This document shows, one piece after another, positions 21,128 to 22,401 of a stretch of DNA of 64,000 nt. This DNA is from a virus, in the IMG/VR virus record IMGVR_UViG_3300045988_163663; one strand, given 5' to 3'. Below the pieces are notes generated by a model that was not told the origin of the DNA, did no database searches, and saw nothing but the letters and a program-made list of their open reading frames with translations. How positions within the stretch are numbered: position 1 is the stretch's first letter; every line of letters begins with the position of its first letter. Position numbers and translations under genes: made by a program.

Positions 21128-21341
21128 AACATTGAGGGATAGCATAGCAGCAAATGCTCCGGTCTCTAAAACCGGTGAAGTGGGGGCAGCACCCACTCCC
21201 TCCGCCAAGCATAAGGCTCACGCAGCAAATTTATTTTTGAAAGTTCACCTAAAATGAATTACTTGTTTTTCAAAATTGAGCCTTGATTTAATTAATATAG
21301 TTTATTTGCCGGTGTGGTGGAATGGTAGACACAAGGGACTT

Positions 21342-22079
21342 TTGACTTAGCAAACGTTAAAATGGAGTGCCTAAGAGGAAACTCTTAGAGTAGAAGTTGG
21401 CTAAAACGGTGAATGGCTAAGAGAACGCCGTGCTAAGTTTTGGAACACATTCTAAAAAATTGGACGACACTCATTAAAATGCCTCTTTTAATTTTTAAAT
21501 AATAATGAAAGAGAGGTAATATAAATGAGAACTGATATTTTAGAACGCAAAGAAGAAATTGAGCAATGGATTACTGAAGGTAAGACTAAAGCTCAAATGG
21601 CAAGAGAATTGGGTTGTAATCCTAAAACAATTAATCCAGTATTAAAAAAGCTTGGCCTTGAATATGCTGGAAATCAAGGTTGTAAAGGATTGTCAAAACC
21701 CAATGGACATGAATTATCTTTGTTAGAATACTTGGAAAAAAGTATTGATATACAGAGTAATAAAGTAAGAAAAAAACTTCTTGATGAAGGTTATAAAGAG
21801 TACAAATGTGAATGTTGTGGATTAACCGAATGGTTAGGAGACCCAATTCCTTTAGAACTTCATCATAAAGATGGAAATCATTTTCATAATGAATTAGATA
21901 ATTTCCAATTATTATGTCCAAATTGTCATGCCAAAACCTCTTCTTATCGTGGAAAAAATTGTTCCAAATAAATGTGTAGAGAGTATATACCAACTATCTA
22001 AGTGCAAGTCGTGCATATGATAAAGACGTATTCCAGACTACAACACAGAAATGTGGCTATGGTGACATAGAGTAGCAAG
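21342..22079 (+). mobile_element. group I intron with an HNH ORF in tRNA-Leu(UAA)
   Basis: 738-nt insertion at the canonical anticodon position. The 5' exon ends in U and the intron ends in G. Core-like 'ttccagactacaac' element present. Contains the HNH ORF. Confidence 0.55.
21525..21971 (+). CDS. HNH homing endonuclease, intron-encoded
   Basis: 'LELHHKDGNHFHNELDNFQLLCPNCHAK' HNH motif. Lies inside the tRNA-Leu intron. Confidence 0.7.
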   Translation: MRTDILERKEEIEQWITEGKTKAQMARELGCNPKTINPVLKKLGLEYAGNQGCKGLSKPNGHELSLLEYLEKSIDIQSNKVRKKLLDEGYKEYKCECCGLTEWLGDPIPLELHHKDGNHFHNELDNFQLLCPNCHAKTSSYRGKNCSK

Positions 22080-22401
22080 AAAATCCCTCGGTGGCAACAC
22101 CATGCGGGTTCGAGTCCCGCCACCGGCACCATTGAACAATAGTAGCTAACGATAGTTGAATAGACGGGTCGGGGCTAACATAGAAAGGTTAGTAGGTAGT
22201 ACGGCGGTAGGTAACAAATCCGCAAGTCGAAATGAGTCAGGAAAACTGAATGATACGGCTTAGATGTTTCCCTCATTTGAGGTTTGGATGGAGATTTTAG
22301 GCGAAGGATAACAACCTTTGACTGCCATTCTGTAAAGCGACCATGAAACCGGGTCATAGCTACCATACTATTGTTTATTCTTAATGTGTAGTTTAAATAT
22401 A

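Follow-up and report, generated by a model that had tools for sequence, protein, structure and literature searches.

Group I introns with genes for HNH endonucleases are known from protein-coding genes of phages, I-HmuI of SPO1 being one example. According to a 2014 review, all phage introns then known were located in protein-coding genes despite the many tRNA genes of phages (PMC3984707), and phage introns in protein-coding genes mostly belong to subgroup IA2 (PMC11835236). For bacteria, 81% of the tRNA introns are reported as IC, and a single case of an HNH gene in a tRNA-Leu(UAA) intron is described, from a Bacteroidota genome and as a rare exception (PMC13011429). The classical intron of this tRNA is inserted as CUU/intron/AAAA (10.1101/2020.01.27.920355), i.e. 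at position 34/35 (PMC13011429). Here, we analysed 64,000 nt (64 kb) of the IMG/VR virus record IMGVR_UViG_3300045988_163663, referred to as the window, in which a phage tRNA-Leu(UAA) gene is split at exactly this position. It is very probable that the insert is a mobile, self-splicing, Azoarcus-like group I intron, which spreads by homing with its own HNH endonuclease. Our literature search for group I introns in phage tRNA genes, with most subscription-journal papers outside its reach, found none. Site, tRNA and ribozyme type are those already known from the bacterial and plastid tRNA-Leu intron, and the phage tRNA gene as host is new.

The limits of the insert are set by an intron-less allele. 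A scan for the spliced-exon junction, which in the RNA would read GGGACUU/AAAAUCCC, returned many uninterrupted phage tRNA-Leu(UAA) genes, among them that of the related phage contig L359 (IMGVR_UViG_3300029858_000001, 157.5 kb), which we compared with the window by BLAST and exact string comparison:

21308-21341 (+): tRNA-Leu(UAA) exon 1, with the acceptor 5' strand, the D arm, the 5' strand of the anticodon stem and the loop bases C32 U33 U34; identical to L359 1389-1422
21342-22079 (+): group I intron, 738 nt, with bacterial tRNA (Azoarcus-like, IC3-type) architecture and an open reading frame (ORF) in the P6 loop; based on the filled/empty comparison, the alignment of relatives, covariation and custom covariance models
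22080-22131 (+): tRNA-Leu(UAA) exon 2, with A35 A36 A37 A38, the 3' strand of the anticodon stem, the long variable arm and the T arm, ending in the acceptor 3' strand, A73 and CCA; identical to L359 1423-1474

The plus strand reads GCCGGTGTGGTGGAATGGTAGACACAAGGGACTT, 738 nt, AAAATCCCTCGGTGGCAACACCATGCGGGTTCGAGTCCCGCCACCGGCACCA over 21308-22131, with exon 1 running from GCCGGTG to AAGGGACTT and exon 2 from AAAATCCCT to CACCGGCACCA. In L359, positions 1389-1474 are identical to the joined exons at 86/86 positions (exact string comparison); this tRNA-Leu gene is uninterrupted, reads GGGACTTAAAATCCC at the site, is labelled tRNA-Leu(taa) and has an Rfam tRNA score of 62.7 bits. The flanks are 93.2% (upstream 103 nt) and 93.8% (downstream 569 nt) identical to those of the window, and the gene order tRNA(CUA), tRNA-Leu, RAGATH-33, tRNA-Gly(UCC) is common to both. 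The intervening 738 nt are preceded by U and have G as their last base. Since the insert runs from T to G, exon 1 ends with T and exon 2 starts with A, no placement of the insert other than 21342-22079, between T34 and A35, is possible.

Therefore, what an earlier note on this DNA had read from the letters is confirmed to the base for 21308-22131: its type II tRNA-Leu(UAA), its insertion between U34 and A35 at the classical site and its 738-nt insert length all agree with the filled/empty comparison. The joined exons form an 86-nt tRNA that ARAGORN labels tRNA-Leu(taa). Its acceptor stem has 7 bp, its T stem is GCGGG/CCCGC and its anticodon loop reads CTTAAAA; the variable arm is long, CCA is encoded and the discriminator is A73. 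The exons are invariant among relatives. The note had also spoken of an ancient site. This holds for the position but not for the copy in the window, which is a recently mobile, phage-borne element and no vertically inherited relic, as the empty and differently filled alleles in near-identical phages indicate. Because UUA makes up 59% of the leucine codons in the long ORFs of this phage, a working tRNA-Leu(UAA) should be useful to it.

Neither default ARAGORN nor the Rfam tRNA model called a gene at 21308-22131. In intron mode, ARAGORN returned a split tRNA gene with a span of exactly 21308-22131, which it labelled tRNA-Stop(tta) with a 736-nt intron. Splicing at such a junction would yield a tRNA with anticodon UUA, an ochre suppressor that would fit a phage already recoding TAG; alternatively, the product could be cut at an internal GACUU (21348), on which the covariance model R1 described below set its P1. 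Both variants are highly improbable, for i) the ARAGORN model requires a mispaired anticodon stem and an 88-nt tRNA, ii) the empty allele fixes the insertion at the DNA level at 21342-22079, iii) the junction CTT/...G/AAAA is found in 58/61 related phage introns among the matches listed, iv) a cut at 21348 would leave a 14-nt anticodon loop and v) reading TAA as sense lifts the ORF cover equally on both strands, as AT-rich composition alone predicts. The tRNA-Stop(tta) call, with its mispaired stem and in contradiction to the empty allele, was rejected, and we retain U34/A35 as the splice junction of the intron. Its fold comprises the following parts:

21338-21341 (+): exon strand of P1, ACUU, the last 4 nt of exon 1
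21344-21348 (+): GACUU, a copy of the exon 1 end and P1 mimic, 7 nt into the intron; model R1 put its P1 here
21365-21368 (+): internal guide sequence GAGU; G21365 forms a wobble with U34 (21341), followed by A-U, G-C and U-A pairs
21371-21388 (+): P2 hairpin, 7 bp, GAAA tetraloop (21378-21381); all 7 pairs covary, recovered in the minimum free energy (MFE) fold
21396-21400 (+): P3 5' strand GUUGG, pairs with CCAAC 21990-21994; all 5 pairs covary, 96% paired
21406-21431 (+): P4, ACGGUG 21406-21411 with CGCCGU 21426-21431; 99% paired, MFE fold
21412-21425 (+): J4/5 and a much reduced P5, enclosed by P4
21439-21446 (+): P6 5' strand UUUGGAAC, pairs with GUUCCAAA 21961-21968; 8 Watson-Crick pairs, MFE fold
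21974-21986 (+): J6/7 and P7 5' strand GUGUAGAGAGUAU (G21979, bulged A21980, G21981-U21986); family alignment, covariation, covariance model R2
21990-21994 (+): P3 3' strand CCAAC, in a pseudoknot with P7; covariation
21996-22021 (+): P8 with a variant of the 11-nt-type tetraloop receptor, UCUAAG...UAUGA; outer helix 100% paired, inner 94%
22028-22034 (+): P7 3' strand GUAUUCC; family alignment, covariation
22038-22075 (+): P9 three-way junction, P9 CUAC/GUAG; P9 99% paired
22044-22055 (+): P9a, CACA-GAAA-UGUG; MFE fold
22057-22070 (+): P9b, CUAUG-GUGA-CAUAG; 100% paired, all 5 pairs covary
22079 (+): terminal guanosine (omega G); invariant alignment column G236, boundary from the empty allele

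That the insert is a group I intron, as the note had proposed, was shown through ORF-less relatives, covariation and custom covariance models. For the alignment, the interior of the P6 loop was deleted from the window intron (8-bp stem and four loop bases kept), and the intron of L001 (IMGVR_UViG_3300045988_158846, minus strand), which has the same tRNA-Leu and junction, was treated likewise. Using MAFFT, the loop-deleted window intron aligns end to end with L001 and 35 short phage tRNA-Leu introns. On this alignment, the hand-drawn fold, for which the window, itself one of the aligned sequences, served as template, has 89.6% of its cells paired compared to 32-44% for slid-partner controls; 39 pairs change on both sides, and 0/500 shuffles reach any of the observed values. 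P2, P3, P4, P7, P8, P9 and P9b are each paired to 86-100%, the P1 columns are paired in 36-37/37 sequences, and covariation is found at most or all positions of P2, P3, P8 and P9b; P3, for instance, is GAUGG/CCAUC in L001. No family-wide counts are given for P6 and P9a, because their variable length leads to misalignment by MAFFT; in the window, both are perfect helices. The P7 pairing consists of GAGUAU/GUAUUC together with G21979-C22034 and the bulged A. The invariance of the P7 and J6/7 strings (GUGUAGAGACUA, AUAGUCCAG), which is due in part to their use as search pattern, was left out of the evidence. The MFE fold of the window sequence alone contains the anticodon stem, P2, P3, P4, P6, P9, P9a and P9b in full and P8 partly. 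A fold with UUGGC/GCUAA as P4 and CUAC/GUAG as P7 was discarded after comparison with L001 and the Azoarcus-type core.

In addition, two covariance models were built from the 35 short introns with the window excluded, R1 from the exon end to the P4 3' strand and R2 from J6/7 to exon 2. On both strands of the 64-kb window, each model has a single match, which is full-length: 21341-21436 for R1 (55 bits, E 5.5e-9) and 21972-22088 for R2 (75.2 bits, E 1.3e-15). The 535 nt between them contain the P6 5' strand and the ORF. Judged by the resemblance of the core and by the prevalence of IC among bacterial tRNA introns, the intron would belong to the bacterial tRNA type, Azoarcus-like and IC3-type. 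G21981-C22033 corresponds to the guanosine-binding pair, and the P8 receptor variant is the likely dock for the L2 GAAA loop. The GACUU at 21344-21348 equals the last five bases of exon 1 and may act as a cryptic splice site or circularisation site. The L050 intron starts in a similar way (TTTACTTAGCAA).

The P6 helix closes a 514-nt loop that bears the endonuclease gene:

21470-21529 (+): hairpin in which the Shine-Dalgarno sequence (AGAGAGG, 21510-21516) and the AUG start of the ORF are buried; -15.3 kcal/mol, z -4.2
21525-21971 (+): intron ORF, 148 aa, ATG start, N-terminal helix-turn-helix (HTH) and C-terminal HNH nuclease; homology to T5 HegA/F-TflIV

The ORF has a length of 447 nt, and its last three sense codons, UGU UCC AAA, form the P6 3' strand. 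Since ribosome binding site and start codon are buried in the hairpin, little protein should be made. The HNH reading of the ORF in the earlier note is supported by PHROG HNH endonuclease families (E 1.7e-26 and 8.3e-26) and by 51% identity to T5 HegA/F-TflIV over all 148 residues (tblastn, E 1e-39), and Pfam adds an HTH match. An alignment of 11 proteins (window, HegA and nine other intron ORFs) shows the residues C95, C98, C131, C134, H114, N126 and H135 without variation. A sequence search of the PDB gave weak HTH matches only, plus McrA at E 0.23. Against GenBank phages, megablast found no match to the locus, and distant-mode BLAST matched the HNH part alone. Comparison with the 98% identical copies in L005 and L007 reveals 12 substitutions in the ORF, 10 silent and 2 with a change of amino acid; 11 of the 12 fall on codon position 3. 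This pattern shows that the ORF is under purifying selection.

Several observations weigh against an intact intron encoding an HNH homing enzyme. The Rfam check named by the earlier note failed: Intron_gpI (RF00028) has no match in the window, neither at the gathering score nor at E<=10. P5 is cut down to at most 2-3 pairs, and the third P7 pair is G.U in the window only and C-G in the 36/36 other sequences, a position that the ascertainment pattern itself fixes. The second GACUU, 7 nt inside the intron, can pair equally well with the guide sequence and could compete for it, and the Pfam HNH match of the ORF (PF01844) stays below the cut-off (18.7 bits, cut-off 21.4). All but the last of these, together with the clear selection on the ORF in its own right, could also be expected if the insertion were decayed and non-splicing, with the tRNA-Leu being a pseudogene and the endonuclease alone being maintained, in effect as a free-standing homing gene. 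Such a decay is improbable, though, in view of the state of exons and core. The exons are unchanged compared to the uninterrupted allele although the flanks differ by 6-7%, every core helix is intact, and UUA is the phage's main leucine codon. Against L005 and L007, the exons show 0 changes and the few changes in the ribozyme part lie in loops or turn G-C into G.U, so that pairing is spared. Moreover, both halves of the intron are full-length matches to the models of Rfam-positive relatives. The negative Rfam result itself is shared by the six ORF-bearing relatives examined: 0/6 pass, including L005 (98% identical to the window), whereas 7/10 of the ORF-less short relatives tested pass with 50-68 bits. 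Rfam thus misses the window intron because the 447-nt ORF fills the P6 loop, and its failure is a property of the loop insertion and not of the core.

The intron is one member of a large family. The core of L001 contains GUGUAGAGACUA ... AUAGUCCAG, which we take to be the core strings of the Azoarcus tRNA-Ile intron and used as search pattern. The pattern is present in at least 120 viral contigs and at least 120 bacterial genome contigs, and an intron of the same kind was found in the tRNA-Leu(UAA) of at least 61 IMG/VR contigs. Among the matches listed, 108/121 of the viral stretches yield an intron-split tRNA with ARAGORN's intron mode, and the 61 viral tRNA-Leu(UAA) loci comprise 56 distinct introns, 41 of them below 320 nt (mostly 178-213 nt) and 15 of at least 400 nt (all but one 688-877 nt). 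The junction CTT/...G/AAAA is conserved in 58/61 of these loci, and an endonuclease gene is present in about one in four of the distinct introns. Among the bacterial matches listed, tRNA-Leu(UAA) is the split tRNA in 50 contigs, and introns above 400 nt occur in 7/107 intron-split tRNAs. Another pattern, CACAAGGGACTTTTGAC, matched L003, L004 and L006 by chance, in unrelated coding DNA.

In related phages, one and the same site exists in three states: empty (L359), with the HNH gene in P6 (window, L005, L007) and with the HNH gene in P1 (L001), the intron of L001 being 90% identical to that of the window in its 3' part and different in its 5' part. Among the ORF-bearing tRNA-Leu introns, the P6 loop harbours the ORF in the window, L023, L021, L026 and L017, and the P1 loop does so in L001, L103, L069, L064, L066, L010 and L108; the C-terminal HNH module is common to all, and the N-terminal parts differ. 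The L001 ORF has two in-frame TAG codons (one in ...SHFLG*SWNK...) and the window ORF has none; therefore, production of the L001 endonuclease would require that TAG is read as sense.

These data also bear on whether the HNH protein homes the intron at all. The ribozyme could splice while the protein, as a recent invader of P6, has another or a relaxed target (e.g. further sites in tRNA clusters, as with the free-standing enzymes of T5) or plays a role in competition between phages. The closest characterised relative, T5 HegA/F-TflIV, is indeed free-standing in a tRNA gene cluster (PMC2330249), the module sits in P1 or P6 depending on the intron with different DNA-binding parts at the N-terminus, and most tRNA introns do without an endonuclease gene (PMC13011429). 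Nevertheless, we consider a protein without a role in homing unlikely, since the presence/absence polymorphism of the intron falls exactly at the site between near-identical flanks, selection maintains an intact ORF inside the intron, and ORF-bearing introns are far commoner among the viral (15/56 distinct tRNA-Leu introns) than among the bacterial matches listed (7/107 intron-split tRNAs).

The same core also occurs in other phage tRNAs (loci L009-L127, e.g. L011, L031, L020, L025 and L035). Their anticodons are given by ARAGORN as TCA, TTA, CAT, TCT, GAA, CTT and ATA, and those with TCA are possible opal suppressors; as the program may set the junction wrongly, the labels are provisional. 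Besides, the rumen Clostridiales metagenome-assembled genome (MAG) RUG11012 contains, on a 187.5-kb contig (L136, CACWXY010000006.1), an ORF-less 202-nt tRNA-Leu(UAA) intron of the window's subtype, with GGCTAATTCGGCG, GACTATATACCA, AAGACATAGTCC and the three-way P9. This may be a hint as to the host range, or the contig may be that of a phage binned in the MAG.

Based on these data, we propose the following mechanism for the mobile, self-splicing intron. Transcription of the gene would give a precursor of ~824 nt, in which the exon end ACUU pairs with the guide GAGU to form P1, the splice site being marked by the U.G wobble. P3-P8 and P4-P6 would then assemble around P7, with the L2 GAAA loop docked in the P8 receptor, and free guanosine would attack after U34. 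Subsequently, the terminal G22079 would enter the same pocket and the freed 5' exon would attack after G22079, so that the joined exons form a normal 86-nt tRNA, which would be aminoacylated and read UUA/UUG. Located in the peripheral P6 loop, the ORF would leave the ribozyme core undisturbed. The presumed targets of the HTH-HNH protein are tRNA-Leu alleles without intron in co-infecting relatives; these it is predicted to nick or cut, and repair from the intron-bearing genome would copy the intron in.

The surrounding tRNA cluster and the downstream region contain further elements:

18494-18631 (+): second interrupted tRNA, with a 69-nt insert in the anticodon loop (CAGGA CUUU[...]C UCCUG); Rfam tRNA 50.4 bits, no ARAGORN call
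18804-19396 (+): ROOL RNA inside the tRNA cluster, 324 bits
20369-21127 (+): free-standing GIY-YIG homing endonuclease, 252 aa with 4 in-frame TAGs as sense; phrog_7168, E 3.5e-37
21133-21204 (+): atypical tRNA with anticodon loop CUCUAAA and anticodon CUA (amber suppressor); Rfam 38.9 bits, missed by ARAGORN
22145-22257 (+): RAGATH-33 RNA inside the tRNA cluster, 135 bits
27159-28223: SLH-domain protein, neighbour of the MVP-like ORF
28647-30185: DUF2828+DUF7788 protein (PHROG 'RNA-binding protein'), neighbour of the MVP-like ORF
30764-33247 (+): 827-aa ORF resembling eukaryotic major vault protein (MVP); Pfam MVP_shoulder 7e-21 and Vault_3 9.5e-9, both above cut-offs
36354-37733: SPFH/Band 7 protein, neighbour of the MVP-like ORF

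The window belongs to a large phage of low GC content (about 29%) with genes for topoisomerase II subunits, ligase, primase, an endolysin and a RecJ-like nuclease. Taking TAG as sense raises the ORF cover of the plus strand from 59% to 86%, and an end-to-end alignment of RecJ requires that 14 TAGs are read through; the replication genes (topoisomerase II, ligase, primase) have 0 TAG, and many other long ORFs have 2-15. Judged by its reading frames, the phage uses TAG as a sense codon. In L359, the place of the atypical tRNA is taken by another tRNA(CUA), which is canonical. The GIY-YIG gene lies directly upstream of this suppressor tRNA and the intron-bearing tRNA-Leu, so that, together with the intron HNH gene, two different homing-endonuclease genes reside in the tRNA cluster. 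RAGATH-33 begins 13 nt past the CCA of tRNA-Leu, a position that is kept in L001, L005 and the intron-less L359. The 69-nt insert at 18494-18631 is far too short for a group I intron; it contains a stem of 7 bp (CGUAAAU/AUUUACG) and a hairpin resembling a T arm (AUAAUAG-UUCAAAU-CUAUUAU). The 827-aa ORF matches the solved rat and human MVP structures over residues 318-800 (phmmer, E 4e-19). L002, a partly related viral contig, has a weak match to YrlA (Y RNA-like) at 2789-2903 on the plus strand (49 bits, gathering score 69) and a 119-nt Rfam tRNA match, which suggests another interrupted tRNA.

Concerning the wider meaning, the apparent frequency of tRNA introns in viral contigs also departs from the picture of the 2014 review (PMC3984707). 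As neither Rfam nor tRNA finders in default mode detect tRNAs interrupted in this way, the tRNA repertoires of phages are under-counted, and suppressor tRNAs with a role in the recoding of stop codons may be among those missed. The empty, P6-filled and P1-filled alleles form a natural series in which intron homing from phage to phage is directly testable; the series is also relevant to the long-standing debate on an ancient or a mobile nature of the tRNA-Leu intron. Bonocora and Shub reportedly proposed that free-standing endonuclease genes invade an existing intron. As a tentative extension, the three allelic states might reflect such invasions of an existing ribozyme intron, and the patchy distribution of the intron in bacteria might be due in part to transfer by phages; the empty, P6 and P1 states and the homology to the free-standing enzyme of the T5 tRNA cluster are the points tied to the invasion, but overall this remains a doubtful proposal.

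Among the known systems, the classical tRNA-Leu(UAA) intron shares tRNA, anticodon and insertion point with the window, as well as the U at -1, the G at the 3' end and a P1 built from the anticodon-stem strand. It is, in contrast, ORF-less, ~250 nt long and located in cellular or organellar genomes, whereas the window intron has 738 nt, an HNH gene in P6 and a very small P5, resides in a TAG-recoded phage and has empty alleles in close relatives. The Azoarcus tRNA-Ile(CAU) IC3 intron resembles it in the short P1, the P2 with GAAA loop and the P8 receptor of the CCUAAG...UAUGG type, but differs in tRNA and insertion position and lacks an ORF; it also has a receptor in P5 and a simple P9 instead of the minimal P5 and three-way P9 of the window.

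Regarding the endonuclease, F-TflIV is listed with F-TflI and F-TflII as one of the homing endonucleases of the T5 tRNA cluster (PMC2330249). T5 HegA/F-TflIV and the window ORF have in common the HTH-HNH layout, the Cys4 and H-N-H residues and the location among phage tRNA genes. HegA, however, is free-standing and comprises 227 aa with an extra C-terminal part, while the protein of the window is encoded by an intron and has nothing beyond the HNH domain. The Bacteroidota tRNA-Leu(UAA) intron, compared by its description, matches in the tRNA and in the family of the intron-encoded endonuclease, but is a bacterial case and a rare exception, in contrast to the phage-borne window copy, which is one of many. 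Introns of the SPO1 I-HmuI type share with the window the phage host, the self-splicing type of intron and a peripheral loop that encodes an HNH enzyme for homing or nicking; they reside in protein-coding genes, whereas the window combines a tRNA gene with the core of a bacterial tRNA intron.

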